Below, in pieces: positions 7,564-49,801 of a DNA stretch of 62,632 bases; the first letter of the stretch is position 1, and every line of letters starts with the position of its first letter. The stretch is from an uncultured Lentisphaerales bacterium. Its GTDB lineage: Bacteria > Verrucomicrobiota > Kiritimatiellia > RFP12 > UBA3636. The DNA is taken from the NCBI GenBank assembly GCA_964553035.1, contig CAZKJH010000005.1, positions 1 through 62,632 on the forward strand. The letters run 5' to 3'. The notes beneath the pieces were generated by a model. That model saw only the letters and a program-made list of their open reading frames with translations. It did not search any database and had not been told where the DNA came from. A program made the position numbers and the translations under genes.

Positions 7564-10500
7564 TATGCATTCTCCTCCCCACCCATCCATTTCCGGATCC
7601 TTGCGCTCAGCGCGGCAGGCTTAACCGGCTTGGACAGGTAGTCGTCGCACCCCGCCGCGAGGATTTCCTCCCGCTCACCAGCCATGGCCGATGCAGTCAG
7701 GGCAATCACCACGGTGTTCTGCAGGGTCTTATCCTGCTTGATCAGTTGCGTGGCTTCCAGCCCGCCCATCACGGGCATCTGGATGTCCATGAGGATCAGA
7801 TCCGGACGCTCGGCTTTAGCCACAGCCACGGCCTCTTTTCCATTGCGGGCTTCAAAGATTTCCAGCTTCAGGTCGCTGAGACCCGCTCTGAGAATAGAGC
7901 GGGTCGTGGTCAGATTGTCAGCATGGTCGTCGACAACCAGAATCGACAGCGCACCATCTTTGCGCGGAATCACGCGAGGAACCGGTTTCTCCACGACACG
8001 TTTCTTCGCGGCGGCAACCTCCTTCATCCCGATCAGGCGGCGAATCGCGCCGATCAGTTGCGTGCGGTCGATGCTGCCTTTCTGAATGAGCTGGTGCACG
8101 TTGTTGTAGCTTAAAGAGGCTCGCTCTGCGGCGGTTAGATCTTTTGCGGTGAGAACCAGCACGGGAAGCTGTTTCGTCGCGGGCGTAGACCGGATGGATT
8201 CCAACACCTGGAACCCGTCCACCTTGGGCATCATTAAATCAAGAATCATACCGTCGGGCACATGGTCCCGGGTTTTGGCCAATCCCTCTTCACCATTCGT
8301 CGCCACATCTACGACAAGGCCGGCAGCGGTCAGGACACTCGTGATTTGATCTCTCGCCACCTGATTATCTTCCACAAGCAGAATGCGCGGCGGAGATCCC
8401 GCCGGCCACTCTTTAACCACGCGATCAGCTCTCGCGGGCTTCTGCTCAACGTGCGCATCTTGCGCCTCACTATGCATGGGCAGGGTCAGCGTGAACGTGG
8501 AGCCCTGCCCCACCTCGCTCTCCACATCGATCCGTCCGCCCAGCAGGATCGCCAACCGCCGGGAAATAGCCAGGCCGAGGCCCGTTCCACCATACTGCCG
8601 AGTGGTTGATCCATCGGCCTGCCTAAATTCGTCGAAGATCTGCGACAAGGCCTGTTCCGGGATTCCAATTCCCGTATCCCAGACGCTGAACACGGCCGAT
8701 CTGCCATCCTGCCGGGCCTTGATGCCGATTTCGCCCTTCTGGGTAAACTTTTGCGCATTGGACAGCAGGTTCAGCAAAATCTGCTTCAGCTTATCTTGGT
8801 CGGTCTGCAACTCACCTAGGCCACTCATCTCAACCGAGATGGACAGCCCTTTTTCATTCGCCAGCGGGCGAATGGCCTCAACCACCGCATCCACCGTCTC
8901 CGCAGCGGCAAAGGACGACACATAAAGATCCATCCGGCCCGCCTCGATCTTGGAGAGATCCAGAATGTCGTTGATCAGATTCAGCAAATGCCGCCCGTTG
9001 CGCTCAATAATTTCAACGCGCTCTTTATCCTCTCCCCCCGCGGCTCCAATCCCGTTGGAGAGCATCAGTTGCGAAAGCGACAGAACGCTGTTGAGCGGCG
9101 TGCGCAGCTCATGGCTCATATTGGAAAGGAACTCCGATTTGAGCCGATTGGCCGCCTCGACCTGCTGCTGCTGGGACTGAAGCTCAACGGCCTGTTCCTG
9201 CAGCTCCTGCGTCTGCTGCTCCATCTCGACGGCCTGCGCCTGAAGCTCGGCGTTGTTTGTGCGCAACTCCTCGGCCAGGCGCTGGGTTTTCACACTCGCC
9301 AACAGGTTGGAGAACGCCGTGCCCATTCCAATCTGCGCTAAATCGAGTGTCTGGCGGAACGTGTCGGGGAAGGCGCTAAGCGTGGCCAACGAGACGACAC
9401 CCATAACCTGACGACCCACCAGCAGGGGAACTGTAAGGATTTCCCGTGGGATGGCGGTGCCGCCCGTTGTCTTGAACGTGAAAACGGTGTCGGAGGAGAT
9501 ATCCCGGACGAGGGAGATTTGTCCCGTGGCGATGGCCTTGCCGAGTTCGCCTTCGTACCCTTTGGCACTGAAGGACTGCGGTGCGTCACCGCTCAACCCC
9601 ACCGAAGCGATTTGCTCAAACACGGCTCCATTTTCGCTGCGCAGGTAAAAGGCCCCTAGGTGCGAGCCGGAGAGGTTGATGAGTTTCATCAGCAACCCCG
9701 AGGCAAAATCATCGATAGTGTCAGCGATAACCAGTATCTCGGACAACTCGGCATACCCTCGACGAATCGCCATTTGAGAAGCAAGCGTCGCGACCATTTC
9801 GTTGAATGCCGCTCCCAAGGCGGCGACTTCGTCGGTTCCCTTGATCGAGCAACGGGCATCCAGCTCGCCGTTGGCGAACCGATGAACCGCGTCGCCAACC
9901 CCGAGGATCGGCCGGGAGAGCGTCTTGGACAGGAGCGGAGACACCAACATGACGACCAGAACGGTGAAACCAAAAACGAATAGCAATTTCTGCAGCATAT
10001 CATGAATCGGCGCATAGACTTCGGCCAGATCGCGCTTCGCCACGAAGCCCCACTGGGTCCGGGGAATATGCGTAAAGGCTGCCAAAACCATCTTGCCGCG
10101 ATAGTCCAAGTCTTCGATAATACCCGTCTCGCCAGCGGCACCCCGTACGGAGGGTTGAGCGGAAATCTTCAGTTTCAGCGGCGCATTCTCATACCATCGC
10201 AGTTCGTTGAGGGCTACACCGTCCTTGTTTACAATCAACGTCTCGCCGGTTTCGCCCATGCCCATCCGGTTCTGAAGCAACGGATACAGCGACTGCGCCA
10301 GATCGACCCGGGCAACCAGCACCCCAACGAGGTGCTCGCCACCATGCACCAGGCTAAAGATGGGGGCGGAAAAAACCATGGCTGGTCGTTTCTCTATCTC
10401 GGAGTAAAAAACATCCTTGATGTAGATCTTCTTCGTGCGCAACGGCTCGGTAAAATACAGATCCGTTTGTTTGTCTTTGCCTTCCTGAGCCAGATCGGTG

Positions 10501-18932: not shown

Positions 18933-18974
18933 TCAGATCCATTCTTTGTAAAATTGTAGTCTCACAGGACTAGA

Positions 18975-19013
18975 CACTAGCGACTCGCCACTAGCGACTA
19001 GCCACTAGCGACT
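18975..19013. repeat. Three tandem 14-bp units (CACTAGCGACT + 3 nt) between the MDR and SDR cistrons
   Basis: Read directly. CTAG occurs at 18970, 18977, 18991, 18998 and 19005, a spacing of 7 or 14 bp, so TAG stops fall in all three frames of the coding (minus) strand. Confidence 0.85.
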
Positions 19014-37077: not shown

Positions 37078-39849
37078 ATGAACAAGCAGCAACTGGCGTC
37101 GAAAATATGGGAGTCCGCAAACCGAATGCGGTCCAAAATCGAAGCAAACGAATATAAGGACTATATTCTCGGGTTTATCTTTTATAAATACTTGTCGGAT
37201 ACCCAAATCAAGGATGTTCGTGAGAATGGCGGCACAGACGAGGACATCAAGGCTTTATCGGAAAATGACACTGACACGGTCCTAAGCATCCAGAAGAACA
37301 TCGGCTACTTCATCGCCTACGAAAACCTGTTCTCGACGTGGATTGAGAAAGGCAAGGATTTTAACGTATCGAACGTCCGCGAGGCGCTCTCCGCGTTCAG
37401 CCGCCAGATCAACTCCACGCACAAGAAAGTCTTTGATCGCGTTCTGAACACCCTAGAAACAGGGCTGTCGAAACTCGGTGACAGCTCCGGTACGCAGACG
37501 AGGGCGATCAGCGACCTCATCCAACTGATCAAGGTCATTCCGATGGACGGCAGGCAGGACTACGACATTCTGGGCTTCATCTACGAATACCTCATCAGCA
37601 TGTTCGCCGCAAACGCCGGGAAGAAGGCAGGCGAGTTCTACACCCCCCACGAGGTTTCCCTGCTCATGTCCGAAATCGTCGCAGACCATGTAAAGGACAG
37701 GAAGGAAATCAAGATTTACGATCCGACAAGTGGGTCCGGGTCCCTGCTGATCAACATTGGCCGCTCCATTGCGAAGCACATCGACAACGAGGACAACATC
37801 AAGTATTTCGCGCAGGAACTTAAAGAGAACACCTACAATCTCACGCGCATGAACCTTGTTATGCGTGGGATTTTGCCGGACAACATTGTCACGCGAAACG
37901 GTGACACCCTTGAGGATGATTGGCCGTACTTCGAGGAGAGTGACCCCATTGGCACCTACAATCCTCTTCATGTGGATGCGGTGGTATCCAATCCCCCGTA
38001 TTCGCAAGCATGGGATTCGGCAAACAAAGAAACAGATCCGCGCTTTGCCGCGTTTGGACTGGCTCCGAAGACAAAGGCCGACTTCGCTTTCCTGCTCCAT
38101 GATTTTTTCCATTTGAAGCCCGATGGCATCATGACCATTGTGCTGCCGCACGGGGTTTTGTTCCGTGGCGGCGAGGAAGGCGGAATCCGGAAGAATCTCA
38201 TCGAGCAAAACCACATCGACACCATTATCGGCTTGCCCGCCAACATCTTCTTCGGAACCGGCATACCGACCATCATCATGGTGCTGAAAAAGAAGCGGAA
38301 GAACAATGACGTGCTGGTTGTCGACGCATCCAAGGGGTTCTCCAAGGTCGGTAAGAACAACGTCCTCCGCGCTTCCGACATTAGGAAGATTGCCGATGCC
38401 GTCATCTACCGGTCGAACATTGACAAGTTCTCGCGGGTGGTCGGTTTAGACGAAATCCGCCAGAACGAATACAACCTCAACATCCCCCGCTATGTCGATT
38501 CATCCGAGCGCACGGAGACGTGGGACATCTACGCCTCCATGTTTGGTGGCCTGCCTGTGGCCGAAATTGATTTGCTGATGCCGTATTGGGACGCGTTTCC
38601 TGGGTTGAAAAACGCGTTGTTCGTGGATGTGGAGCGCGGCGACTTGTCGCCGCTTTCAAAGCGGGAACAAGTTCCCGCACTCCAGACAATGCCCTACTTC
38701 AAATTAGCCGTGAACGACATCGAAAAAGCAGTCCGCGAACATCCATCGGTGCTTACTTTCAAGCGCGGTTTCGATGCGGCTTTTTCCGGATTTGCGGGTT
38801 TCCTCAATAGCGAGCTTCTCGGCAAGTGGGAAACGCTTAAAATCGGTAAAGAGGAATCGGTTATCGCCGCTTCCATCTTCGAACGACTTGAAGGGATGGC
38901 TCTGGTCGATAAGTACAGCGCCTATCAAGCACTGGATGACGAATGGACAAAGACTGCTATCGATTTGGAAATACTACAAACAGAGGGCTTCGGCGCAGCG
39001 AAGAAGGTCGATCCCCACATGGTGCTGAAAAAGAAGGACGGCAAAGACCATGAGGTTCAGGACGGATGGGTCGGCCATGTCATTCCGTTCGAGTTGGTGC
39101 AGTCCACAATGCTTAAGACCGACGCTGACGCCCTGAAGCAGAAGGTGGAGCGGCTCGCGGAGATTCAATTGGCTTACGAAGAAGTCATTGATTCGCTGTC
39201 GGAAGAAGACAAAGATAGCGAGGTTCTTAACGATGCGAAGGATGCATTCGTCGCCGCCGCCTTGGCGAAGAAAATTAAGGAGCTGTGGGGTACGCTTGCA
39301 AAGGCAACGACCGCCGTTCTCGCTTGCGAAGAGGATTCATTTGAGCGGAAGCTGGTGCAGGTACAGCAGTTGATCGACGAGGAAAAGGAGCTGAAGGTGA
39401 AGGTCCGGAAGGACGCAGCAGCCTTGCACTTGCGGACAAAAGGAACTATCGAGGGATTGTCGGACGAGCAGGTTGTCGAATTGCTTGAAGCGAAGTGGAT
39501 TGAACCGCTGATGACCGCGCTCTACAAAATGCCTGACAACATCATGTCCGACTTGGTTTCGCGTGTTCGTGGCCTAGCAGACAAATACGCCACCACATAC
39601 GCCGAAGTTGCGGAGCAAATCTCCGAAACCAAATCGTCGCTCTCGGCCTTGATTGACGGACTGACAGGCAACGAATATGACCTGAAAGGTTTGAAGGAGT
39701 TTCAGTCGCTTTTGGAGGGGGAGACTCAGGCAGATGGGACGACTAAGCCTACTAAGGCGGCTAGGGAGACTAAGGCTACTGGGACTATGCCTAGCGGCCC
39801 TATTGGCCTTAGTCGCCCTAGCACAAAACCAAAGGAGTCGAAGCCATGA
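37078..39849 (+). CDS. hsdM: Type I restriction-modification system methyltransferase subunit (long form with coiled-coil C-terminal region) ending in a repeat-encoded tail
   Basis: 923-aa ORF. It has the HsdM N-domain (IWESANRMRSKIEANEYKDYILGFIFYKYLSD), the SAM motif YDPTSGSGSL and the catalytic SNPPYS. The last ~40 aa (TKPTKAARETKATGTMPSGPIGLSRPSTKPKESKP) are encoded by junction module A. Confidence 0.9.
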   Translation: MNKQQLASKIWESANRMRSKIEANEYKDYILGFIFYKYLSDTQIKDVRENGGTDEDIKALSENDTDTVLSIQKNIGYFIAYENLFSTWIEKGKDFNVSNVREALSAFSRQINSTHKKVFDRVLNTLETGLSKLGDSSGTQTRAISDLIQLIKVIPMDGRQDYDILGFIYEYLISMFAANAGKKAGEFYTPHEVSLLMSEIVADHVKDRKEIKIYDPTSGSGSLLINIGRSIAKHIDNEDNIKYFAQELKENTYNLTRMNLVMRGILPDNIVTRNGDTLEDDWPYFEESDPIGTYNPLHVDAVVSNPPYSQAWDSANKETDPRFAAFGLAPKTKADFAFLLHDFFHLKPDGIMTIVLPHGVLFRGGEEGGIRKNLIEQNHIDTIIGLPANIFFGTGIPTIIMVLKKKRKNNDVLVVDASKGFSKVGKNNVLRASDIRKIADAVIYRSNIDKFSRVVGLDEIRQNEYNLNIPRYVDSSERTETWDIYASMFGGLPVAEIDLLMPYWDAFPGLKNALFVDVERGDLSPLSKREQVPALQTMPYFKLAVNDIEKAVREHPSVLTFKRGFDAAFSGFAGFLNSELLGKWETLKIGKEESVIAASIFERLEGMALVDKYSAYQALDDEWTKTAIDLEILQTEGFGAAKKVDPHMVLKKKDGKDHEVQDGWVGHVIPFELVQSTMLKTDADALKQKVERLAEIQLAYEEVIDSLSEEDKDSEVLNDAKDAFVAAALAKKIKELWGTLAKATTAVLACEEDSFERKLVQVQQLIDEEKELKVKVRKDAAALHLRTKGTIEGLSDEQVVELLEAKWIEPLMTALYKMPDNIMSDLVSRVRGLADKYATTYAEVAEQISETKSSLSALIDGLTGNEYDLKGLKEFQSLLEGETQADGTTKPTKAARETKATGTMPSGPIGLSRPSTKPKESKP
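39741..39823. repeat. Junction module A: CTAG-rich palindromic 9-mer array at the hsdM 3' end
   Basis: Left arm is GACTAAGCC TACTAAGGC GGCTAGGGA GACTAAGGC. Right arm is ATGCCTAGC GGCCCTATT GGCCTTAGT CGCCCTAGC. It is related to the modules at 40841-41022 and 41620-41870. Confidence 0.8.
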
Positions 39850-41051
39850 GTGAAACAATGAAAACGCCTGAAAAGCAAGGGCTGAAAAGGACAACGAGTA
39901 GACAAAAAATCTCCATTCGGTTTTTCGGCGATGCCGAAGTTCGTGCGGTATGGGATGACGCACATTCCAAGTGGTGTTTTTCGATTCTGGATATTGTTGG
40001 CGTTTTACGTGGCGAACGCGATTATGAAAAAAATCGAAATTACTGGAAATATCTGAAGGCAAAGCTGAAACGGGAAAACAATCAACTGGGTAGTGTGACT
40101 ACCCAGTTCAAGTTCACCGCCCCCGATGGCAAGAAACGCGCCGCGAATGTCCTAGATTACAACGGTATTGTTGAGCTAGCGAAAAATTTTCCAAGCAAAA
40201 TGGCGAACCGTTTTATGGAATGGCTCACCTACAGCGATGAAACCATTGACGGCAAAAGCAAATCCAAGGCGTATGCTCTGTTTGACAGCACTTTGCTGGA
40301 TACCCTGGAAGTCGGTACGGTCAGAGGGTTGCAGCAAATTCATGGCTATCTGTTTGGCGGGCTTTATGATTTCGCGGGGCAAATCCGCTCGAAGAATATT
40401 GCAAAAGGTGGCTTTCAGTTTGCCATGGCGCGCTATCTGCCCCAAACGCTGAAAGACATCGAAGGAATGCCCGAAAACACCTTTGACGAAATTGCGGACA
40501 AGTATGTGGAGATGAATATCGCCCATCCGTTCATGGAAGGCAATGGCAGAAGTACCCGTGTCTGGCTTGACCTGATCTTGAAAAAGCGCCTCAAGCGTTG
40601 TGTGGATTGGAGCAAAATCAACAAGAAGGATTATTTGAATGCCATGGAAAAAAGCGTTTCGAATCCTTCGCAAATCAAGGCATTGCTGCAAAACGCAATC
40701 ACAGACAAAATCAATGACCGCGAAGTGTTTATGAAAGGCGTGGATTACTCCTACTATTATGAACAGGAAGATGGTGTCACCAACGATGTCGAAGTCCGCG
40801 CGGGTTGGGATGATGAACATTCCTCAAAAAATGGTTTTGCTAAGCCGACTAGGCCCACTAAGGCTACTAGGCCTCCTAGGCCCACGAGCAACAGCGCTAG
40901 TTGCCCTAGTGGCCCTCGTAGCCCTAATCCTGAGCCTGCGAGAACTAGGCCTACTAAGGCTACTAAGCCCCCTACGCCCACGAGCAACAGCGCTAGTAGC
41001 CTTAGCCGCCCTAGTGGCCTTACCCCACAACCTGAGGGTCTCCAGCCATGA
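39846..41051 (+). CDS. Bro-N-like DNA-binding domain fused to a Fic (AMPylase-type) domain, with repeat-encoded C-terminal tail
   Basis: 401-aa ORF. The N-terminal segment IRFFGDAEVRAVWDDAHSKWCFSILDIVGVL...YWKYLKAKLKRE...FTAPDGKKRAANV...FMEWL resembles Bro-N/antirepressor N-domains. The Fic motif HPFMEGNGRSTR is intact. SYYYEQ near the end of the globular part resembles the class III inhibitory motif. ATGA overlaps occur on both sides, and AAGGAG lies 8 nt upstream. Confidence 0.8.
   Translation: MSETMKTPEKQGLKRTTSRQKISIRFFGDAEVRAVWDDAHSKWCFSILDIVGVLRGERDYEKNRNYWKYLKAKLKRENNQLGSVTTQFKFTAPDGKKRAANVLDYNGIVELAKNFPSKMANRFMEWLTYSDETIDGKSKSKAYALFDSTLLDTLEVGTVRGLQQIHGYLFGGLYDFAGQIRSKNIAKGGFQFAMARYLPQTLKDIEGMPENTFDEIADKYVEMNIAHPFMEGNGRSTRVWLDLILKKRLKRCVDWSKINKKDYLNAMEKSVSNPSQIKALLQNAITDKINDREVFMKGVDYSYYYEQEDGVTNDVEVRAGWDDEHSSKNGFAKPTRPTKATRPPRPTSNSASCPSGPRSPNPEPARTRPTKATKPPTPTSNSASSLSRPSGLTPQPEGLQP
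40841..40930. repeat. Junction module B1
   Basis: GACTAGGCC CACTAAGGC TACTAGGCC TCCTAGGCC CACGAGCAAC AGCGCTAGT TGCCCTAGT GGCCCTCGT AGCCCTAAT. Confidence 0.8.
40941..41022. repeat. Junction module B2 (second copy, directly upstream of the four-helix-bundle gene)
   Basis: GAACTAGGC CTACTAAGGC TACTAAGCC CCCTACGCC CACGAGCAAC AGCGCTAGT AGCCTTAGC CGCCCTAGT GGCCTTACC. Confidence 0.8.
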
Positions 41052-41617
41052 GCGCAGCTTTTCTTCCACCCAAAGGTAACTTTAGGGATCTGATCGCCTA
41101 TCAGAAGTCGGAGTGCGTCTATGATATCACCTTCCATTTTGCGCACCGCTTCCTTTCTAGGGGCGACCGCACTGTCGATCAGATGGTTCAGGCGGCGCGA
41201 TCTGGCAAGCAGAACATTGCGGAGGGTTGTGCTGCTTCAACGACTTCTTCCGAAACCGAAATTAAGCTCCTGAATGTCGCCAAGGCTAGTTTGCAGGAGC
41301 TTCTGCTGGATTATGAGGACTACCTGCGGGTGAGGAGTCTGCCGATTTGGGAAAAGAATAACCCGAAGGCAGAGCAGTTGCGGAAAGTCTGCGGCAAGCA
41401 TAACGATACGGCGTTTTATACCGCGCAATTGCCGGAGCGGTCGGACGAGGCCATCGCAAATCTAGCGATCACACTTATTCATCAAGCTGATGTCCTGCTG
41501 GCGGCCTACCTTGAACGAATCAAACACGACTTCCTTGAAAATGGCGGCATCCGCGAGCAGATGACCCGAGCCCGCCTCGACTATCGCAGACAGGAAGGAG
41601 GGCTGAATGGCCGATAG
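41048..41617 (+). CDS. Four-helix-bundle protein with suffix domain (family first described from 23S rRNA intervening sequences)
   Basis: 189-aa ORF. The segments FRDLIAYQKSECVYDITFHFAHRF...QMVQAARSGKQNIAEG...AKASLQELLLDYEDYL are typical of this family. The C-terminal ...ENGGIREQMTRARLDYRR is suffix-like. Confidence 0.75.
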   Translation: MSAAFLPPKGNFRDLIAYQKSECVYDITFHFAHRFLSRGDRTVDQMVQAARSGKQNIAEGCAASTTSSETEIKLLNVAKASLQELLLDYEDYLRVRSLPIWEKNNPKAEQLRKVCGKHNDTAFYTAQLPERSDEAIANLAITLIHQADVLLAAYLERIKHDFLENGGIREQMTRARLDYRRQEGGLNGR

Positions 41618-43154
41618 CACCAACAGCAGTGGCCTTAAAACTAAGACTAGGCCCACTAAGGCCAATAAGGCTTCTAGGCCCACTAGCAACAGCCCTAGTA
41701 GCCTTAGTAGCCTTAGCAGCCTTAGTAGCCTTAGTAGCTCTAGCAGCCCTAGCAGCCCTAGCAGCCTTAGTAGCCCTAGTGGCCTTAGTAGCCCTAGCAG
41801 CCCTAGTAGCCTTAGTAGCCTTAGCAGCCTTAGTAGCCTTAGCAGCCCTAGCAGCCCTAGTGGCCCTACCACCAAGCCTAAGTTCCCTAACCACCACACC
41901 CATACCGCCATGCCTGAAAATACGAAAACACCCGAAATCCGCTTTGCCGGATTCACTAACGCTTGGGAACAGCGCAAGCTCGGCGACGTTGCGGACATCA
42001 TTGGCGGCGGCACGCCAAGCACAGGCGTCAAAGAATACTGGGGCGGCGATGTTGATTGGTATGCTCCTGCCGAAATCGGCGAGCAAATCTATCTCACGAG
42101 TAGCCAGAAGAAAATTACAGAGCTGGGATTGCAGAACACCTCGGCAAAGATGCTGCCCGTGGGATCTGTCCTGTTTACTTCCCGCGCAGGCATTGGAAAC
42201 ACAGCTATATTGGCTAAAACTGCTGCAACCAATCAGGGTTTTCAGTCAATCGTACCCCACAAGGATGGATTGGATTCATACTTCATTTTTTCAAGAACGC
42301 ATGAGTTGAAACGCTACGGCGAAACAGTCGGAGCGGGTTCTACGTTCGTGGAAGTGTCTGGGAAACAGATGGCGCTGATGCCGATTCTAATACCTGAAAT
42401 GTCCGAGCAGAAGAATATAGGTCAGCTATTCGCCAATCTCGACCGCCTCATCACCTTGCATCAGCGTGAGTATGACAAGACGGTCAACATCAAGAAGGCC
42501 ATGCTCGAAAAAATGTTTCCGAAAGAGGGCGAGAATAAACCCGAAATCCGCTTCGCCGGATTTACTGACGCTTGGGAACAGAGGAAGCTGGGGGACGTAA
42601 CGAAATCCTATTCAGGTGGAACACCGACTGTCGGCAAAAATGAGTACTACGGTGGGCAGATTCCGTTCATCCGTTCTGCTGAAATCAATAGTTATACTAC
42701 GGAATTATTCCTAACCGAAAGCGGTCTTCAAAACTCATCGGCAAAGATGGTGCACGTCGGCGATATACTCTATGCGCTGTATGGTGCTACGAGTGGAGAG
42801 GTCGGAATAGCCAAATTAAAAGGCGCAATTAATCAGGCCATCTTCGCAATCAAACCCGATGATGGTTATGATTCTCAATTCATCATGCAATGGTTGCGCG
42901 GCCAGAAGCAGAAAATCATCGACAAATACCTGCAAGGCGGGCAAGGGAATCTGTCTGGCTCATTGGTCAAAGACCTACTATTAAAATTTCCGAGCATCGG
43001 CGAGCAAGCAAAAATCGGTTCGTTTTTTGCCTCCCTCGACCACCTCATCACCCTTCATCGGCGGGAGTTGGAAAAGCTCCAAAACATGAAGAAAGCCTTG
43101 CTTGAAAAGATGTTTGTGTCTGCCTCCCGCGTTGTGCGCGGTGCAGGCCAGTAG
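41607..43154 (+). CDS. hsdS: Type I R-M specificity subunit with two target-recognition domains; possible 101-aa repeat-encoded N-terminal extension (alternative start 41910)
   Basis: The canonical HsdS N-terminus (MPENTKTPEIRFAGFTNAWEQRKLGDV) begins at the ATG at 41910, which has no Shine-Dalgarno sequence. The ATG at 41607 has AAGGAGG 5 nt upstream and reads through module C in frame. The conserved repeats PEIRFAGFT(N/D)AWEQRKLGDV and LITLH(Q/R)RE...KKA(M/L)LEKMF each occur twice. Confidence 0.85.
   Translation: MADSTNSSGLKTKTRPTKANKASRPTSNSPSSLSSLSSLSSLSSSSSPSSPSSLSSPSGLSSPSSPSSLSSLSSLSSLSSPSSPSGPTTKPKFPNHHTHTAMPENTKTPEIRFAGFTNAWEQRKLGDVADIIGGGTPSTGVKEYWGGDVDWYAPAEIGEQIYLTSSQKKITELGLQNTSAKMLPVGSVLFTSRAGIGNTAILAKTAATNQGFQSIVPHKDGLDSYFIFSRTHELKRYGETVGAGSTFVEVSGKQMALMPILIPEMSEQKNIGQLFANLDRLITLHQREYDKTVNIKKAMLEKMFPKEGENKPEIRFAGFTDAWEQRKLGDVTKSYSGGTPTVGKNEYYGGQIPFIRSAEINSYTTELFLTESGLQNSSAKMVHVGDILYALYGATSGEVGIAKLKGAINQAIFAIKPDDGYDSQFIMQWLRGQKQKIIDKYLQGGQGNLSGSLVKDLLLKFPSIGEQAKIGSFFASLDHLITLHRRELEKLQNMKKALLEKMFVSASRVVRGAGQ
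41620..41870. repeat. Junction module C: left arm plus expanded right arm, a 9-bp microsatellite of about 20 units (41691-41870, AGCCYTAGY)
   Basis: I counted the units by hand: 19 good units and 1 degenerate unit. The left arm GACTAGGCC CACTAAGGC CAATAAGGC TTCTAGGCC CACTAGCAAC is homologous to B1 and B2. Confidence 0.9.
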
Positions 43155-43166
43155 GAGAACCGCCAA

Positions 43167-43484
43167 ATGAAACACAAGAACAGCGCAACTAAAAGCACAT
43201 CGGATCTTGCCAAAAAAGGCGCACAAGCGGTTACAAGAGGTGTGGTCGCTATCGATGAGAGCTCCTTATTCGAGCGCATTGCTGTCATCATTGAAAGCCG
43301 AAGGGCTCGTGCCGAAAGCCAGGTAAACGCCGAACTCACTTTGATGTATTGGGAAATCGGAAACTATATCAACTCTGTTATTTTAGATGGTGGACGCGGG
43401 GCTTACGGAAAGGAGATTTTGGCGACACTGTCGCCAAAATTGGTGGCATCGCAAAAGGAGAAGAGGACGAGTAATGGCCTTTAA
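43167..43484 (+). pseudogene. N-terminal fragment of a DUF1016/YhcG-family (PD-(D/E)XK nuclease-like) gene
   Basis: 105 codons. The segment ...RARAESQVNAELTLMYWEIGNYINSVILDGGRGAYGKEILATLSPKL matches the conserved N-terminal domain of ~350-aa DUF1016 proteins. The frame then runs into and overlaps the hsdR start. Confidence 0.6.
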
Positions 43485-46400
43485 CAAAGAATCCGAATTT
43501 GAGGAAGCCCTCATCAACATCCTGTTCACCAAAGGGTGGGAGGAAGTTATCAAGAACCCCACGGAGCAGGCGCTGATCAGCAACTGGGCGAGCATCCTCT
43601 TTGACAACAACCGCGACATCGACCGCCTCAATAACTGTCCGCTCACCGATGGAGAAATGCAGCAGATCATCGAGCAGATCAACGTATTGCGAACGCCGCT
43701 CAAGCTCAACGGCCTCATCAACGGAAAGACGGTCTCCATCAAGCGCGACAACCCCACCGACGCGGCTCACTTCGGGAAAGAGGTTTCCCTGAAAATCTAT
43801 GACCGCCAGGAGATCGCCGCCGGGCAGAGCCGGTATCAGATTGTGCAGCAGCCCAAGTTCCCCACGCAGGGCATACTCAATGACCGTCGGGGCGACCTCA
43901 TCCTACTCATCAACGGCATGCCCGTCATTCACATTGAGCTGAAAAAGAGCGGGGTGTCGGTCAGCCAAGCTGCGAATCAGGTTGAGAAGTATTCCAGAGG
44001 GGGGATTTTCAGCGGCATGTTTGCGCTTGTCCAAATTTTCGTGGCCATGGAGCCGAGCGAGACGCTGTACTTCGCCAATCCGGGGACGGACGGCAGGTTT
44101 AATTCCGACTTCTTTTTCCATTGGGCAAACTATGACAACGAGCCTATCAACGACTGGAAGGACATTGCCTCGACGTTGCTCTCGATCCCGATGGCGCACC
44201 AGCTCATTGGCTTCTACACGGTCCCCGATGATACGGACGGTGTTCTCAAAGTCATGCGAAGCTATCAGTATTATGCCGCGAGCGCCATCTCCGATTGCGT
44301 CTCCAAAACCAAGTGGGAGGGCAACAACCAGCTTGGTGGCTACATCTGGCATACGACGGGTTCTGGTAAGACCATGACGAGCTTTAAGTCGGCGCAACTC
44401 ATCGCCAACTCCAAAGACGCGGACAAGGTCATTTTCCTGATGGACCGGATCGAGCTTGGGACGCAATCCCTGAAAGAGTACCGGGGCTTTGCTGAGGATA
44501 ACGACGACGTTCAGGCGACTGAGAACACGCTTGTTCTGATTGCCAAGATGAAAAGCAATAACCCCGCTGACACGCTCATCGTCACGTCTATCCAGAAGAT
44601 GAGCAACATCAAAGAGGAAAGCGGGATGAACGCCGCTGACATCCAGAAGATGACCGACAAACGTATCGTGTTCATCGTGGACGAATGCCATCGTTCCACC
44701 TTTGGCGACATGCTCATCACAGTCAAGGCGACGTTCCCCGGCGCGATATTCTTCGGCTTTACAGGCACCCCGATTCATCTTGAGAACCAGATCAAGGGTA
44801 ACACGACCGCAACGGTTTTTGGTGACGAGTTGCACCGGTACAGCATCGCCGACGGAATCCGGGATAAGAACGTGCTTGGCTTTGATCCTTACAAGGTGCT
44901 GACGCATAAGGACAAAGATGTGCGAAAAGCCGTAGCCTTGCACCAGGCTAAGGCGAAGAACGAACAGGAGGCAATCGCAGACCCAGCAAAAAGTAAGGTC
45001 TATTACCACTTCATCAACGATGTCAAGATGGCCGACAGCAAGGACGCTACGGGCCAGCGCGTACGGGGCATAGAATCCTACCTTCCGAGCACTCAATACA
45101 CCCGCAGTGAACACCAGGAAAAGGTGGTGGACGATATTGTGGCAAACTGGACGACGCTCTCCCATGCAGGGAAATTTCACGCTCTGTTCGCCACGAACAG
45201 TATTCCGGAAGCCATCGAGTATTACCGGCTCATCAAGGCTACGAAGCCGGAGCTTAAAATCACGGCACTCTTTGACCCGAATATCGACAATGGAGCGGGG
45301 GCGACGGCCGCAGTCAAGGAGGCTGGACTTGTCGAAATCATCACAGACTACAATGCCCGCTACGACCAGAAATTCGAGGCCGCCACTCATGCTAAGTTCA
45401 AGAAGGACATTGCGGCGCGACTGGCGCACAAGGAGCCGTACCGATATATCGACCGCACGCCACACCAACAAATTGACCTGTTGATTGTTGTTGACCAGAT
45501 GCTCACTGGCTTTGATTCCAAGTGGATCAACACGCTTTACTTGGATAAGCTACTTGAGTATCAGAACATCATTCAGGCGTTTTCGCGCACGAACCGCCTG
45601 TTCGGGCATGAGAAGCCTTTCGGTACGATCCGCTACTATCGCAAGCCGCACACGATGGAGAAGCACATCGAAGAAGCCGTGAAGCTCTACTCCGGCGACA
45701 AGCCCCTCGGCTTGTTTGTGCAAAGGCTTGAAGACAACCTTGTCGCCATGAACGAGCAGTTTGCCAACATCGGAAAGGTCTTTGCTGCCGCAGGGGTAGC
45801 CGACTTCACGCAAAACCCAGAGGACAAATCAGCTTGCGGCCAATTCGCCAAGCTATTCAGGGAGCTGAACGGGCACCTTGAAGCCGCGAAGATCCAGGGT
45901 TTTACTTGGGATAAGCGGGAGTACGTGTTCCAGAATAGGCCGGGTGCGAAGAAGACCACCGTGAGGATGGCTTTTGATGAAAATGCCTATCTCGTTCTTG
46001 CACTGCGTTACAAAGAGTTGTTCTCCGGTCAGGACGGCGGTGGTACGGGTGGCGGGGGCGAGGTACCATACGAAATCGACGGCCATCTGACCGAGATCGA
46101 CACGGGGAAGATTAACGCGGAATATATGAATTCGCGGTTTGACAGGTATTTAAAGCTCGTGAATCTCAACCCGCAGCCATCAAAGGAACTTGTCGATCAG
46201 GCGTTAGACGATTTGCACAAGACATTCGCGACACTGACCCAGGAAGAACAGAAATACGCTGGACTCTTCCTCCGCGACATCGAACGTGGCGATGGGGTTG
46301 TTGAGGAAGGGAAAACCCTACGCGACTATATCACCGAGTATCAGGTTAGGGCGAAAGACGACCAGATTCACCGCGTGTCAGATACGTTCGGCTTGAATGA

Positions 46401-46707
46401 GGTCCTGTTGCGGGCAATAATGGGATTAAAGCTCACCGAGACAAACATCAATGAATACGGACGTTTTGACCAGTTGAAAGCGACCGTAGACAAAACGAAA
46501 GCCTGCGCATATTTTAAGGCTCAACTGGGCACAACCGTTTCAGCCTTTAAGGCGAGCATGGAGTTAGATAAGCTACTTCGGCGATTCCTACTTGAAGGAG
46601 GCTATGACGTGATACTCTACACAACGGAGTCACAAAGTATTGCATGTGGCTCAGTTGAGCTGCAAGAACTGCGAAAAGTGGCCGAGAAAACAGACGATCC
46701 TTATTGA
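43474..46707 (+). CDS. hsdR: Type I restriction enzyme endonuclease/translocase subunit
   Basis: I moved the start to the ATG at 43474 (MAFNKESEFEEALI), which has GGAG upstream. It has a nuclease region (DLILLINGMPVIHIELK), helicase motif I HTTGSGKT, DEAH-like FIVDECHRS, and motif VI QAFSRTNR. Confidence 0.92.
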   Translation: MAFNKESEFEEALINILFTKGWEEVIKNPTEQALISNWASILFDNNRDIDRLNNCPLTDGEMQQIIEQINVLRTPLKLNGLINGKTVSIKRDNPTDAAHFGKEVSLKIYDRQEIAAGQSRYQIVQQPKFPTQGILNDRRGDLILLINGMPVIHIELKKSGVSVSQAANQVEKYSRGGIFSGMFALVQIFVAMEPSETLYFANPGTDGRFNSDFFFHWANYDNEPINDWKDIASTLLSIPMAHQLIGFYTVPDDTDGVLKVMRSYQYYAASAISDCVSKTKWEGNNQLGGYIWHTTGSGKTMTSFKSAQLIANSKDADKVIFLMDRIELGTQSLKEYRGFAEDNDDVQATENTLVLIAKMKSNNPADTLIVTSIQKMSNIKEESGMNAADIQKMTDKRIVFIVDECHRSTFGDMLITVKATFPGAIFFGFTGTPIHLENQIKGNTTATVFGDELHRYSIADGIRDKNVLGFDPYKVLTHKDKDVRKAVALHQAKAKNEQEAIADPAKSKVYYHFINDVKMADSKDATGQRVRGIESYLPSTQYTRSEHQEKVVDDIVANWTTLSHAGKFHALFATNSIPEAIEYYRLIKATKPELKITALFDPNIDNGAGATAAVKEAGLVEIITDYNARYDQKFEAATHAKFKKDIAARLAHKEPYRYIDRTPHQQIDLLIVVDQMLTGFDSKWINTLYLDKLLEYQNIIQAFSRTNRLFGHEKPFGTIRYYRKPHTMEKHIEEAVKLYSGDKPLGLFVQRLEDNLVAMNEQFANIGKVFAAAGVADFTQNPEDKSACGQFAKLFRELNGHLEAAKIQGFTWDKREYVFQNRPGAKKTTVRMAFDENAYLVLALRYKELFSGQDGGGTGGGGEVPYEIDGHLTEIDTGKINAEYMNSRFDRYLKLVNLNPQPSKELVDQALDDLHKTFATLTQEEQKYAGLFLRDIERGDGVVEEGKTLRDYITEYQVRAKDDQIHRVSDTFGLNEVLLRAIMGLKLTETNINEYGRFDQLKATVDKTKACAYFKAQLGTTVSAFKASMELDKLLRRFLLEGGYDVILYTTESQSIACGSVELQELRKVAEKTDDPY

Positions 46708-46750
46708 AATCGAAGATAAAGAGCGTTATCCAGATCGTGGGGCAGGAGAT

Positions 46751-46906
46751 ATGACGCTGAACCGCACGAACTCGTTTGCCGGTGTTTCACACTACGATGC
46801 CCAAGACCGCATGACCACCGGATCCGGGATGTCCTTCGTCTACGATCTCAACGGCTCGCAGACGAACCGCATCATCAACGGACAATTTGTTTTGGGATCG
46901 CGATAG
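46751..46906 (+). pseudogene. Isolated YD/RHS-repeat fragment (about 51 codons)
   Basis: The translation ...SHYDAQDRMTTGSGMSFVYDLNGSQTNRI shows two YD-repeat-like units. It is far too short for an RHS protein and sits at the right edge of the R-M island. Confidence 0.4.
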
Positions 46907-46918
46907 GTCAGAGTAAAG

Positions 46919-48391
46919 TCAGCAACGGTTAGACTCAAACGCCGCGAAAGCAGCAAGCATCTGTGCAGAAGTTTCTTTGAGCGAGCGATCAGGATGAATT
47001 ACCTCGGTTGCCTTGCAAAAACGATCAGAAAGTGCGTCAAACGAAAGCCCCCCAACAGCATTGGCGGCTCGCATGGCCGCTCCGAGTCCTGCCGAATTCG
47101 AAATCGAAATCGTTTCGATTTCGGCTTGAAAAACATTGGCTAGGACTTGACGAAATCCCCGAGACTTGGATGCCCCACCTGTGACTCGAATACGAGTGAA
47201 GTCCTCACCCTGCCAAGCGGAATGCAGTCGCATCGACAACGCTTGTGACTCCACGAGCGCACGGATCATCGTAGCAGGCGATTCGTTTTTAAAATTGAAT
47301 CTTACTCCAGGCTTCAAAACAAGGGGCGTCGATTCTGGCAGGTAGTAGGGTAGCATCAGCTTCCCGCCATTACCAAACGCCGTCGATTCCAACGCCTCAT
47401 TATCAAAAAAGTCCCAATTGACGCCGCACGCTTGCTTCATCCGCTCTCGGGCAAGCGACCCGTTCGTAAAGCAAATGAGGCTCATAAATCCACCAGCCGG
47501 ATTTCCGAAAACATGTCCGTAGCCAGCAGGGTCAGTTTTAAAATCCTGCATCGCAGCGAAAAAGGTATCGCTCGTTCCAAGACTAATACCGGCGGAGCCG
47601 GGTGCCGAAGCGCCCGTACCGACGAGACTGTTTGGATTGTCACCCGACCAGACAACAACATGCGTTCCCGGCTTCAACCCATACTGAGCAAACTTAGGCG
47701 AAAGCCCTCCGGCAATCGTCGAGGAGGCAACAGCCGCAGGCAACTTTGCCAAGAGACCCGGTGCTGTAAATTCAGCGATTTCAGCATCCCAAGACAAGGT
47801 TCGCAAATTCAGCAGATTCATTCCTGCGCCATCGCCATAGTCGATCGGAGCCGAATGACCAATCATCTCTGAGCAAAGAAAACTGCTAACAAGATGGATG
47901 AATTTTGTTCGACGATATACCGTGGGATCTGTCTTATAAAACTTTCGAATCTGGGGACCTGTGAAACGTTCAATGGCGGGACTTCCCGTCTCGCGGCGAA
48001 GACGCTCGCCAAAACATGCATCGAGTTCCCGACATTCCGCCGAGGTTGACCGATCCATCCAGATAGGCGCAGTCGGCCGCGTGAGCTCGAAATTCTCACC
48101 CAGATAAACTGAACCGTGCTGCTGCCCCGAGCCCGAAATTCCTTCAACAGCATCTAGCTTAACCCCTGTGTCAACGAGCTTTCTCAACGCCAAATGCAAC
48201 GCCTTCACCCACATACGAGGATTCGAATGGCAAATGCGTGGATCCGGGTTTTCAAGATAGCCGTTCGGAGATGCAAACTCTGGCAAGTCATTGCCGAAAT
48301 TAACACTCACCTCTGCGAGGATCGACTCTGCATCGATTACTATGACTTTGAGACCCTGTGTGCTTGCGTCAATTCCAAGATAAAGTGCCAT
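46919..48391 (-). CDS. FGGY-family carbohydrate kinase, xylulokinase-like
   Basis: 490-aa ORF with the N-terminus LYLGIDASTQGLKV, then GISGSGQQHGSV, and a C-terminal VTGGASKS. Confidence 0.8.
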   Translation of the reverse strand: MALYLGIDASTQGLKVIVIDAESILAEVSVNFGNDLPEFASPNGYLENPDPRICHSNPRMWVKALHLALRKLVDTGVKLDAVEGISGSGQQHGSVYLGENFELTRPTAPIWMDRSTSAECRELDACFGERLRRETGSPAIERFTGPQIRKFYKTDPTVYRRTKFIHLVSSFLCSEMIGHSAPIDYGDGAGMNLLNLRTLSWDAEIAEFTAPGLLAKLPAAVASSTIAGGLSPKFAQYGLKPGTHVVVWSGDNPNSLVGTGASAPGSAGISLGTSDTFFAAMQDFKTDPAGYGHVFGNPAGGFMSLICFTNGSLARERMKQACGVNWDFFDNEALESTAFGNGGKLMLPYYLPESTPLVLKPGVRFNFKNESPATMIRALVESQALSMRLHSAWQGEDFTRIRVTGGASKSRGFRQVLANVFQAEIETISISNSAGLGAAMRAANAVGGLSFDALSDRFCKATEVIHPDRSLKETSAQMLAAFAAFESNRC

Positions 48392-48406: not shown

Positions 48407-49801
48407 CTAGTACCGATAGGCGTCCGCTTTGTATGGGCCATCAACCGGAATGCCAACGTACTTCGACTGCCGCTCCGTGAGCTGCGTCAGCTTCGCGCCA
48501 AGTTGACCGAGATGGAGCCGTGCAACCTCTTCATCGAGCTTCTTGTCGATCATGTACACGCCTGGCTCGCGACCTCCGCTCCACAGATCCATCTGCGCCA
48601 GCACTTGATTCGTGAACGAACACGACATCACGAAGCTGGGGTGCCCTGTAGCACATCCCAAATTTACGAGTCGTCCTTCGGCAAGTAGATAAATGCAATG
48701 TCCATTTGGGAAGGTGAATTTGTCAAGCTGAGGCTTGATGTTCGTATGCACAACGCCCGGCCATGCCTTGAGCTTGGCAACTTGGATCTCATCATCAAAA
48801 TGGCCGATATTGCAAACGATCGTCTGATCGCGCATCTTCGACATGTGCTCGGCGGTGATGATGTCGCAAACACCCGTCGTCGTAACAAAAATGTTCGCAT
48901 GCGGGAGTGCATCATCCACGGTGGTGACCTTGTATCCAGCCATGCAAGCCTGTAGCGCACAGATCGGGTCAATTTCCGAAACCCAGACTTGAGCCCGATG
49001 ATTTTTCAAAATTTCCGCACAGCCTTTACCGACATCGCCATAGCCGCAAACAAATGCGATTTTGCCGGCAACCATGACGTCTGTTGCGCGCTTAATGCCG
49101 TCCACAAGAGATTCCCGGCATCCATAAATATTGTCGAATTTTGACTTGGTAACCGCATCGTTCACGTTAATAGCAGGAACGAGAAGCTCGCCCTTTTCGG
49201 CCATCTTGTAGAGGCGATGTACACCTGTTGTTGTCTCTTCAGAAACGCCCTTCCAACACGCAACTGCTCTCTGGAAGAAGCCCGGCATCGCCTTAATTCG
49301 CTCGCGTATGACCTCACGCAAGATTCCGGCCTCTTCACTCTCAACCTCGCCATCGAGGGTCGACGGATCGTTTTCGGCGTTGTAGCCCATGTGCAAGATC
49401 AATGTGGCATCACCACCGTCATCGACAATCAGATCAGGTCCTGTTTCGCCAGCCCACGTCAACGCGTCAAGGGTGCAATCCCAGTATTCGCGAAGTGTCT
49501 CCCCCTTCCATGCGAAGACGGGCGTGCCGCCGACAGCAATGGCTGCAGCGGCGTGGTCTTGTGTCGAAAAAATGTTACATGATGCCCAACGAACCTGTGC
49601 ACCGAGTTCCTGAAGCGTCTCGATCAGCACCGCTGTCTGGATCGTCATGTGAAGGCTACCTGTGATGCGAGAACCTGCAAGCGGCTTCTGCAAGCCATAT
49701 TTCGCGCGAGTCGCCATCAGGCCTGGCATTTCATGCTCTGCCATATCGATCTCTGCCCTGCCCCACCCCGAAAGATTGATGTCTTTTACTTTATAGTCCA
49801 T
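48407..49801 (-). CDS. ahcY: Adenosylhomocysteinase
   Basis: I moved the start to the ATG at 49801 ([30 protein letters not shown]). It has the NAD motif [10 protein letters not shown] and the end ...YKADAYRY. Confidence 0.93.

Follow-up and report, generated by a model that had tools for sequence, protein, structure and literature searches.

The window analyzed here is a stretch of 62,632 nucleotides (nt) from an uncultured Lentisphaerales bacterium (GenBank assembly GCA_964553035.1, contig CAZKJH010000005.1). Between positions 37078 and 46707, its plus strand carries a type I restriction-modification (RM) operon of six co-oriented open reading frames (ORFs), in the order hsdM, a 401-amino-acid (aa) ORF that joins a Bro-N-type domain to a Fic domain, a four-helix-bundle (4HB) gene, hsdS, a DUF1016_N stub, and hsdR. 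On balance, the 401-aa ORF is likely to be a mobile, self-contained, autoinhibited class III Fic passenger with a role in defense or addiction. It runs in the same direction as hsdM, to which it is translationally coupled, and is inserted in an otherwise canonical hsdM-hsdS-hsdR operon. This one-strand gene order had been described in an earlier note, a first reading of the letters alone, and every element was found where that note had placed it; the ATGA overlaps it reported between hsdM and the Fic gene (39846 to 39849) and between the Fic and 4HB genes (41048 to 41051) are read directly in the sequence. The features of the ORF are as follows.

39846 to 41051, plus strand: Bro-N/Fic ORF, 401 aa (PADLOC PDC-S04, NF046029, and homologue alignments)
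39906 to 40229, plus strand: Bro-N-type DNA-binding domain, aa 21 to 128 (Pfam Bro-N, PF02498 on homologues, and Foldseek against BFVD)
40524 to 40559, plus strand: FIC catalytic motif HPFMEGNGRSTR, aa 227 to 238 (read from the sequence; fits HxFx(D/E)GNGRxxR)
40749 to 40766, plus strand: cis inhibitory-helix motif S302-Y-Y-Y-E306-Q307 (aligned to SYYYEG of NmFic)

Using Pfam, a Fic match was obtained over aa 160 to 245 (E value, 3.4e-13), and the NCBIfam model NF046029, "protein adenylyltransferase NmFic," matched aa 133 to 307 along profile positions 3 to 177 of 177 with 273.4 bits, against a cutoff of 230. Among solved structures, those of EfFic from Enterococcus faecalis and NmFic from Neisseria meningitidis (PDB 3S6A, 2G03, and 5NV5) are nearest, with E values of 1e-66 to 1e-67 and approximately 60% identity over aa 132 to 307. 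An AlphaFold model of the 401-aa protein, with a predicted local distance difference test (pLDDT) score of 69 and a predicted template modeling (pTM) score of 0.54 that suffice for domain folds, was matched by Foldseek to the NmFic and EfFic structures with TMt values of 0.75 to 0.83. By sequence, aa 133 to 309 are assigned to a class III (NmFic/EfFic-type) Fic AMP-transferase domain. Across 56 aligned family members, H227, P228, F229, E231, G232, N233, G234, R235, and R238 are invariant, as are S302, Y303 to Y305, and E306, and Q307 is found in at least 90%. The complete catalytic motif announced in the earlier note therefore stands, as HPFMEGNGRSTR is intact and both the Pfam Fic and NF046029 models match. 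The SYYYEQ segment, described there as one residue off the class III motif, is, by alignment with NmFic, probably the true inhibitory helix, and its Q is specific to this clade; Fic-only relatives retain the canonical SY(F/Y)YEG. Y303 aligns with Y183 of NmFic, the auto-AMPylation site, and the tyrosine equivalent to NmFic Y188 is absent, with E308 in its place. These data support the prediction of an intact Fic enzyme that is competent for AMPylation, is autoinhibited, and carries a Bro-N domain. In three deeper Bro-N/Fic clusters (P0437, P0470, and P0431; 35 to 37% identity), the catalytic motifs are degenerate (KPFEHGSERSLR and KPFDKCNGPAIR) and the S-x-x-x-E motif is lost, which suggests that these are catalytically dead derivatives of the fusion.

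For the N-terminal domain, the Pfam Bro-N score of the window protein itself (E value, 3.3e-4; 21.7 bits) falls below the gathering score of 25.6 bits. Precomputed PF02498 assignments are present on nearly all close homologues, and Foldseek searches of BFVD matched the domain to phage and baculovirus proteins of the BRO-N and antirepressor types (probability 1.0; E value, approximately 1e-4; model pLDDT of 53 to 87 in this region). The Bro-N/antirepressor-like N terminus of the earlier note is supported by the homologues and the BFVD folds but not by the protein's own Pfam score. The same Bro-N subfamily occurs in a second catalogued candidate, PDC-S13, which was linked to the present family by local phmmer, Pfam, and PADLOC scans: the protein at L061:6749-7618 matches the window N terminus with an E value of 1e-17 and PF02498 with 46.7 bits, while its C-terminal domain differs from Fic and has no Pfam match. 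In that locus 2.4 kb separate the PDC-S13 gene from a PDC-S04 gene downstream of it (L061:9980-10867). The two kinds of fusion fit a design of a shared sensor or tether with a variable effector. A search with the Bro-N domain alone for other effector fusions was uninformative, returning only truncated Bro-N/Fic fragments.

The fusion is already a catalogued family. The PADLOC PDC-S04 model PDLC04841 matched aa 20 to 309 end to end, across both halves (profile positions 3 to 292 of 292; E value, 1.9e-160). Residence inside a BREX, DISARM, or type I RM system was the criterion by which the 145 PDC candidate genes were chosen ("guilt-by-embedding"), with PrrC cited as the paradigm (Payne, Hughes, Fineran, and Jackson, 2024, 10.1101/2024.01.29.577857). 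RefSeq gives the name "protein adenylyltransferase Fic" to a full-length homologue on Treponema saccharophilum pTS1, where it sits in a type I operon loaded with passengers. Since PADLOC and published work already contain the family, the rationale of embedding, and the comparison with PrrC, the finding is confirmatory.

Distribution and relation to restriction genes

The Bro-N/Fic family is very large, with at least 8000 candidates in a word-indexed homologue search, and the full fusion is present in at least eight clusters at 50% identity. Its dominant clade is 68 to 87% identical across Clostridia (Firmicutes), Bacteroidota, Spirochaetes, Proteobacteria, Coriobacteriia (Actinobacteria), Synergistaceae (Synergistetes), Margulisiibacteriota, and two archaeal metagenome-assembled genomes (MAGs). 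Full-length copies numbered none in 50,697 phage records and one in 72,556 plasmid records.

Gene neighbors were surveyed at the 77 of 80 related loci that had a callable Fic ORF, using iterated hidden Markov models and Pfam scans of all -1 and +1 genes; tblastn with the window Hsd proteins had been tried at the 80 loci and was dropped as too insensitive. An RM-like gene is directly adjacent in 20 of the 77 loci and lies within four genes in 26. Upstream neighbors matched Methylase_S (n = 6), N6_Mtase (n = 4), and N6_N4_Mtase (n = 4), and downstream neighbors matched ResIII (n = 11, six of them with HSDR_N), Methylase_S (n = 3), and N6_Mtase (n = 1). SIR2, RhuM, other Fic proteins, resolvases, and HipA were also found in these positions. 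As a rough guide, a random gene would be expected next to RM genes about 1% of the time. By that measure, the RM association of the Bro-N/Fic gene is a large enrichment, yet far from obligate.

Embedded copies occupy M|Fic|S and S|Fic|R positions, often with 4-nt overlaps. Both ends of the Fic gene overlap in this way in L043, L045, and L060, and one end does so in L025, L033, L036, L046, L047, L049, and L068. The Hsd proteins adjacent to these copies are only 22 to 36% identical to those of the window, whereas the Fic proteins are 70 to 87% identical. The Bro-N/Fic gene is missing from all 68 loci that encode the closest relatives of HsdM (68 to 85% identity in the core); these loci have a compact hsdM-hsdS-hsdR arrangement with gaps of approximately 20 nt. 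Three members of this HsdM family, L094 (5556-6224), L103, and L138, carry instead a Fic-only class III gene (...SYFYEG, PDLC04842) between hsdS and hsdR. Judged from these sequences, this RM family has acquired NmFic-type genes on at least two occasions and at different junctions.

The earlier note had proposed a candidate abortive-infection effector coupled to the Hsd complex. The first half of that proposal is reasonable given the PADLOC listing as PDC-S04, whereas the coupling has no comparative support. Against specific coupling stand the limited RM association (a directly adjacent RM-like gene in only 20 and one within four genes in only 26 of 77 loci), the unrelated Hsd partners, the 0 of 68 closest-HsdM loci, and a Fic-less operon with the same insertion site (described below). 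Embedding does recur in other loci, but about two-thirds of the close relatives lack an RM gene within four genes. Because the RM association is partial, the Hsd partners are unrelated, and the closest-HsdM loci lack the gene, the distribution points to a promiscuous cassette rather than a coevolved leash.

These data bear directly on a PrrC-like guard, in which the Fic enzyme would be latent through contact with HsdMSR and freed when a phage anti-restriction protein (e.g., a DNA mimic) disables the complex, with Bro-N as sensor or tether. The nesting of the gene on the same strand of a type I hsd operon with ATGA overlaps is what such a guard would look like, as is the recurrence of tight embedding at M|Fic|S and S|Fic|R, with the Treponema plasmid as a cultured example, and both the PrrC precedent and the published embedding rationale favor it. 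We nonetheless consider it quite unlikely, as about two-thirds of close relatives stand apart from RM genes, a nearly invariant Fic protein is paired with Hsd proteins of unrelated families, the gene is missing from all 68 closest-HsdM loci and from a related operon at the same site, and the enzyme already contains an apparently complete cis autoinhibition device. PrrC of the EcoprrI type Ic locus, the paradigm of latent backup defense, resembles the window gene in that an effector is encoded within an hsd operon and in its orientation. PrrC is, however, an unrelated enzyme that combines an ABC-ATPase with an anticodon nuclease, is tied to one Hsd family, and is almost exclusively embedded in type I RM systems (10.1101/2024.01.29.577857), compared with about one-third of Bro-N/Fic loci.

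Palindromic blocks and the origin of the chimeric frame

A pattern search found the nonamer AGCCYTAGT and its complement 35 times in the window, against 0.02 expected, and all occurrences lie at the hsdM|Fic, Fic|4HB, and 4HB|hsdS junctions. They build four homologous palindromic blocks of approximately 91 nt (A, B1, B2, and C), recognized from direct-repeat family D1 and block alignment, with the architecture (ACTAAGGCY)n, loop, (RGCCTTAGT)n. A loop motif, AGGCCCACKAGCAACAG, is common to the blocks and is clearest in B1, B2, and C. The blocks, the gene between them, and a shorter repeat are as follows.

39742 to 39832, plus strand: block A (direct-repeat family D1; inverted repeats I8, I9, and I12)
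40848 to 40938, plus strand: block B1 (direct-repeat family D1; inverted repeats I7 and I11)
40944 to 41034, plus strand: block B2 (as for B1)
41048 to 41617, plus strand: 4HB protein of the 23S-rRNA-IVS-protein family with a "suffix" domain (PF05635, 3.5e-7; TIGR02436)
41646 to 41869, plus strand: block C with an expanded nonamer array of approximately 20 copies of AGCCYTAGT (Tandem Repeats Finder period 9, 19.8 copies; inverted repeats I1 to I6)
40784 to 40823 versus 39929 to 39968, plus strand: 40-nt direct repeat of family D2, 83% identical, encoding DVEVRAGWDDEHS versus DAEVRAVWDDAHS

As read from the ORFs, the blocks are translated in frame and account for the last 46 aa of HsdM, approximately 70 aa in the tail of the Fic ORF, and residues 1 to 101 of HsdS. 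The conserved body of HsdM covers aa 1 to 877 (to nt 39708), and its final 46 aa come from block A, whose RNA folds at -46.1 kcal/mol (z = -5.1) and whose right end (to nt 39850) provides a Shine-Dalgarno (SD) sequence, AAGGAG, and the ATGA stop/start junction. Downstream of block B2 come GAGGG and the ATGA junction to the 4HB gene, which also matches TIGR04258 (suffix domain) with 79 bits against a cutoff of 40. The HsdS ORF starts at a conserved SD (GGAAGGAGGG) and an ATG at 41607, its conserved body begins at M102 (nt 41910), and the PADLOC Specificity_I profiles begin at aa 104 to 105. The N-terminal extension of HsdS (41607 to 41909) is 101 aa, rich in Ser, Pro, and Leu, and encoded by approximately 20 tandem nonamers. 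The same SD, ATG, and MA(D/A)STNSSG opening (MADSTNSSG in the window) are found in L169 and L173. The nonamer array differs in length and composition from that of the window in L169 and L171, and in L173 the same ORF is a freestanding 51-aa peptide; nonamer copy number changes preserve the reading frame. The Logan short-read contig of the same sample (L081) stops inside array C. For annotation, the lesson is that translated palindromic blocks of approximately 91 nt inflate three ORFs (HsdM, Fic, and HsdS) and break short-read assemblies.

Copies of the 4HB gene at least 90% identical to that of the window occur in other metagenome contigs, always with the same flanking blocks. In L168 to L172 the gene lies in a related operon arranged hsdM-[block]-4HB-[block]-hsdS, and in L173 to L178 it lies beside lpxC-clpX-clpP-tig, with blocks located, for example, at L169:2898-2990 and 3580-3860 and at L173:1016-1200 and 1800-1930. 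The block-flanked 4HB gene is therefore known in three genomic contexts, namely two RM operons and one lpxC-clpXP-tig locus, and the module looks mobile and cassette-like; no recombinase was found near it. The nonamer repeat is absent from the 150 loci examined, apart from the window's own contig, a loop-motif variant had no match in the GTDB species representatives, and the loop motif itself was found in one JGI contig that was already known. A three-unit nonamer pattern in 17 other genomes was set aside as unrelated, being short arrays with no Hsd, Fic, or 4HB tblastn match. A role for the 4HB protein as antitoxin or partner of Fic was rejected, since 4HB occurs without Fic in L169 and L173 and Fic occurs without 4HB in L082 and in all 77 surveyed loci. 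The related operon in L168 and L169 has no hsdR within the contig; at 5446-7681 it is followed by a 380-aa YD-repeat-like ORF and an opposite-strand RVT_1 gene whose N terminus resembles reverse transcriptases of diversity-generating retroelements (DGRs). For a DGR link of an Avd-like 4HB protein, this RVT_1 gene lies 3 kb away in L168 and L169, but no reverse transcriptase homologue was found in the window.

Rickettsia palindromic elements are tolerated inside reading frames, and, separately, some intervening sequences (IVS) of 23S rRNA carry 4HB ORFs. The window resembles these systems in its in-frame palindromes of approximately 91 nt and in the 4HB gene (23S_rRNA_IVP family) between inverted-repeat blocks. 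It differs in that the blocks are built of nonamers, supply their own SD and ATGA, lie between protein genes of an operon, and are known from three contexts only.

By blastn, L169 matches the window up to position 39850 and resumes at 40944, and the hsdM alignment behaves likewise in L168 to L172. Because of this break, the Fic gene and block B1 (approximately 1.09 kb together) are read as an insertion relative to an "empty site," block B2 being the block kept in the Fic-less operon. A block-flanked 4HB gene together with a Fic-less empty site offers a rare direct view of passenger genes entering an operon without polar effects. Upstream of the closest Fic relative, a copy in L082 that is 92% identical to that of the window, stand the right end of a block A and the leader sequence seen in the window, the leader there being a separate short ORF that ends in a stop. 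This copy is followed directly by hsdS. A 60-nt segment with a small hairpin (GGCGATTCATCGCC) occurs twice in L082, once where the Fic gene ends (981-1040) and once shortly after hsdS begins (1129-1188), and may be another repeat element or an assembly artifact.

Homologues of the Bro-N/Fic protein are approximately 295 aa long, and the window ORF adds a 20-aa leader and a tail of approximately 90 aa (aa 310 to 401). Five pieces make up the ORF: the leader (aa 1 to 20), Bro-N (aa 21 to 128), Fic (aa 133 to 309), a duplicated stub (approximately aa 313 to 326), and a tail encoded by B1 and B2 (approximately aa 330 to 401). The 40-nt repeat pair brackets the body of the Fic gene, and its downstream copy encodes the stub, which corresponds to the Bro-N start; this duplicate may be what is left of a second Bro-N gene, or else a scar of recombination.

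The Bro-N/Fic gene is under purifying selection, with a dN/dS against the L082 copy of 0.11 (Bro-N part, 0.10; Fic part, 0.107). Since all family-invariant residues are kept, a good SD (AAGGAG) precedes the Fic ATG, and dN/dS is 0.11, the chimeric ORF is most likely alive. The same observations make it extremely improbable that it is a decaying chimeric pseudogene that has lost its native start and stop and is open only because the blocks lack stops in two of three frames, all the more as the L082 copy has the same upstream block and leader sequence. What speaks for such decay is that the canonical start (MNKISIRFF) has been replaced by the block A leader, that the tail reads through the stub and two blocks, and that some deeper Bro-N/Fic clusters (P0437 and P0470) have degenerate catalytic motifs.

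The operon has gathered at least three passengers (Fic, 4HB, and DUF1016), of which DUF1016 is decayed. A selfish passenger without a defense role, landing together with 4HB in an insertion-tolerant "genomic sink," hitchhiking on a transferred RM operon, and serving at most as an addiction module, could account for this accumulation. It would also fit the presence of the same block-flanked 4HB module beside lpxC-clpX-clpP-tig, the spread across phyla at 68 to 87% identity, the negative defense test of a PDC-S04 (see below), and the genomic sink hypothesis discussed by Payne et al. (2024, 10.1101/2024.01.29.577857). We regard it as unlikely, given the strong purifying selection on both domains, the enrichment of RM and defense neighbors far beyond the level expected for a random gene, and the validated Fic-domain defense precedent of SoFic.

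Possible mechanism and comparison with known systems

Under the favored reading of a self-contained, autoinhibited passenger, Glu306, in the C-terminal helix of the enzyme itself, would keep it inactive, possibly together with oligomerization. An infection-related cue, probably sensed via Bro-N on DNA or on a phage protein, would lead to auto-AMPylation of Tyr303, or to a change in oligomeric state, and so open the active site. The enzyme would then AMPylate the ATP-lid tyrosine of GyrB/ParE, and the resulting arrest of DNA topology and growth would produce abortive infection or an effect of the addiction type. From the restriction operon the gene would gain transcription and linked horizontal transfer, with no specific leash to the Hsd complex. 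The steps are modeled on characterized relatives: NmFic auto-AMPylates Y183, is regulated by a tetramer-monomer equilibrium, and AMPylates GyrB Y109, VbhT and Fic-1 target GyrB/ParE, and the class III relatives tested arrest growth once derepressed (PMC12894286).

Several points weigh against this reading. A PDC-S04 gene deleted from or expressed in Escherichia coli NILS69 gave no detectable defense, the PDC-S04 subfamily being unstated (David et al., 2025). A literature search found no paper that experimentally characterizes the Bro-N/Fic fusion clade; to this extent the novelty claimed in the earlier note stands, although the family and the embedding idea have already been published. The residue after the inhibitory Glu is Q, versus the G/N of the class III motif (S/T)xxxE(G/N), and the repeat-encoded tail of approximately 90 aa directly after the inhibitory helix could alter regulation. 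The structural model, mediocre at a pLDDT of 69, is unusable for Bro-N/Fic packing, interdomain contacts, and the state of the inhibitory helix. The GyrB/ParE target is inferred only from homologues that are approximately 60% identical. EfFic is bifunctional, AMPylating and deAMPylating, with its conserved Glu catalyzing removal (PMC6408439), and by analogy the window enzyme could be regulatory rather than toxic.

In its fullest form, that last possibility is a nontoxic, bifunctional AMPylase/deAMPylase, tethered to DNA by Bro-N, that reversibly tunes a DNA-associated target (gyrase/topoisomerase IV or an Hsd subunit) during restriction or translocation. EfFic, approximately 62% identical, has a conserved Glu that supports deAMPylation and a metal switch, Glu306 is invariant in the family, and Bro-N suggests localization on DNA. 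Since the gene is mostly away from RM systems and tested class III relatives arrest growth when derepressed, we hold this reading, and with it an Hsd-related substrate, to be highly improbable.

A restriction guard of a new biochemical kind is a further proposal and, in our view, very unlikely. Here Bro-N would be occupied by DNA at rest, and a mimic of the Ocr/ArdA type, or DNA damage after failed restriction, would displace the DNA, release the helix, and allow gyrase/topoisomerase IV AMPylation to abort infection. Because such a sensor would read a generic anti-restriction cue and not a particular Hsd complex, it is compatible with promiscuous RM, BREX-like, and stand-alone contexts.

With PDC-S04 as catalogued, the window gene shares the full-length match to the 292-position profile and the embedded type I RM context; its leader and its repeat-encoded tail of approximately 90 aa set it apart, as does its place between hsdM and hsdS in an HsdM family in which the Bro-N/Fic gene is otherwise missing. 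With NmFic and EfFic it shares the FIC motif, the S-x-x-x-E of a predicted inhibitory helix, the Tyr equivalent to NmFic Y183, and a score above the NF046029 equivalog cutoff. Those proteins are class III single-domain enzymes of approximately 190 aa, whereas here a 110-aa Bro-N domain stands in front (family length, approximately 295 aa), Q replaces G/N, and E308 is at the Y188 site. SoFic, validated as a single-gene defense, and FicT/VbhT are similar as Fic-fold AMPylases acting as growth-arresting toxins or defense effectors, with GyrB/ParE as a known target class. The match of the window protein to SoFic is only 14.6 bits, however (E value, 0.0038), and the VbhT model scored 49.5 bits against a cutoff of 800; unlike VbhT/VbhA and FicT/FicA, type II toxin-antitoxin modules of class I Fic enzymes in which a separate small antitoxin provides the inhibitory helix, the window enzyme has this helix in cis and no adjacent antitoxin gene.

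Should the gene prove to work in defense or as a toxin, it would represent an abortive-infection effector that acts by AMPylation and is independent of any antitoxin. To the few genes known to be nested in restriction operons, of which the PrrC/RloC anticodon nucleases form the first mechanistic class, it would add a second. With 68 to 87% identity kept from bacterial phyla to archaea, it is well suited as a test case among the PADLOC PDC candidates.

The remaining operon genes and their surroundings

The other genes of the operon are as follows.

37078 to 39849, plus strand: hsdM, long-form type I methyltransferase family (Pfam N6_Mtase, 8e-102, and HsdM_N)
41607 to 43154, plus strand: hsdS (Methylase_S, 3.6e-44, in two stretches corresponding to two target-recognition domains)
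43167 to 43484, plus strand: truncated DUF1016_N ORF, 105 aa (DUF1016_N, 6.4e-11, profile positions 2 to 59 of 137 only)
43387 to 46707, plus strand: hsdR (five HsdR domains: HSDR_N, SWI2_SNF2/ResIII, T1R_D3-like, and EcoR124_C)

HsdM scored 312 bits on TIGR00497 (cutoff, 243), and its aa 1 to 877 match positions 1 to 856 of the 857 in the PADLOC MTase_I profile PDLC03022; HsdR scored 348 bits on TIGR00348. By comparison with the hsdR gene of L094, the true hsdR start is most likely at 43474 (MAFNKESEFE), and the DUF1016_N stub overlaps this probable start. The stub also matches PADLOC PDC-S02 and, from its truncated profile match, is read as the decayed remnant of a YhcG-like PDC-S02 passenger gene between hsdS and hsdR. 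Promoter-like sites are present upstream of hsdM, no notable intrinsic terminators were found between the operon genes, and an Rfam scan of the operon returned nothing meaningful.

The operon is flanked by chromosomal housekeeping genes, with dnaE (DNA polymerase III alpha), trkH, and trkA upstream and a 490-aa opposite-strand ORF followed by ahcY downstream. The best named relatives of AhcY (48407 to 49801) are from Kiritimatiellia MAGs at approximately 83% identity, and a relative in L181 is 92% identical; the host probably belongs to an uncultured lineage of Kiritimatiellia. Gene order on the ahcY side differs in L181, so that the region between the ORF at 46919 to 48391 and the RM operon is variable; as synteny beside ahcY is not kept in this relative, presence or absence of the island could not be read from it. 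Just after hsdR, an 88-aa ORF with a YD-like motif (46640 to 46906) had no Pfam match. Elsewhere in the window, a CTAG-rich 7/14-nt tandem repeat (GACTAGCCACTAGC, approximately 3.3 copies; 18968 to 19013), unrelated in sequence to the nonamer blocks, sits in the intergenic gap of two minus-strand ORFs of 371 and 422 aa.

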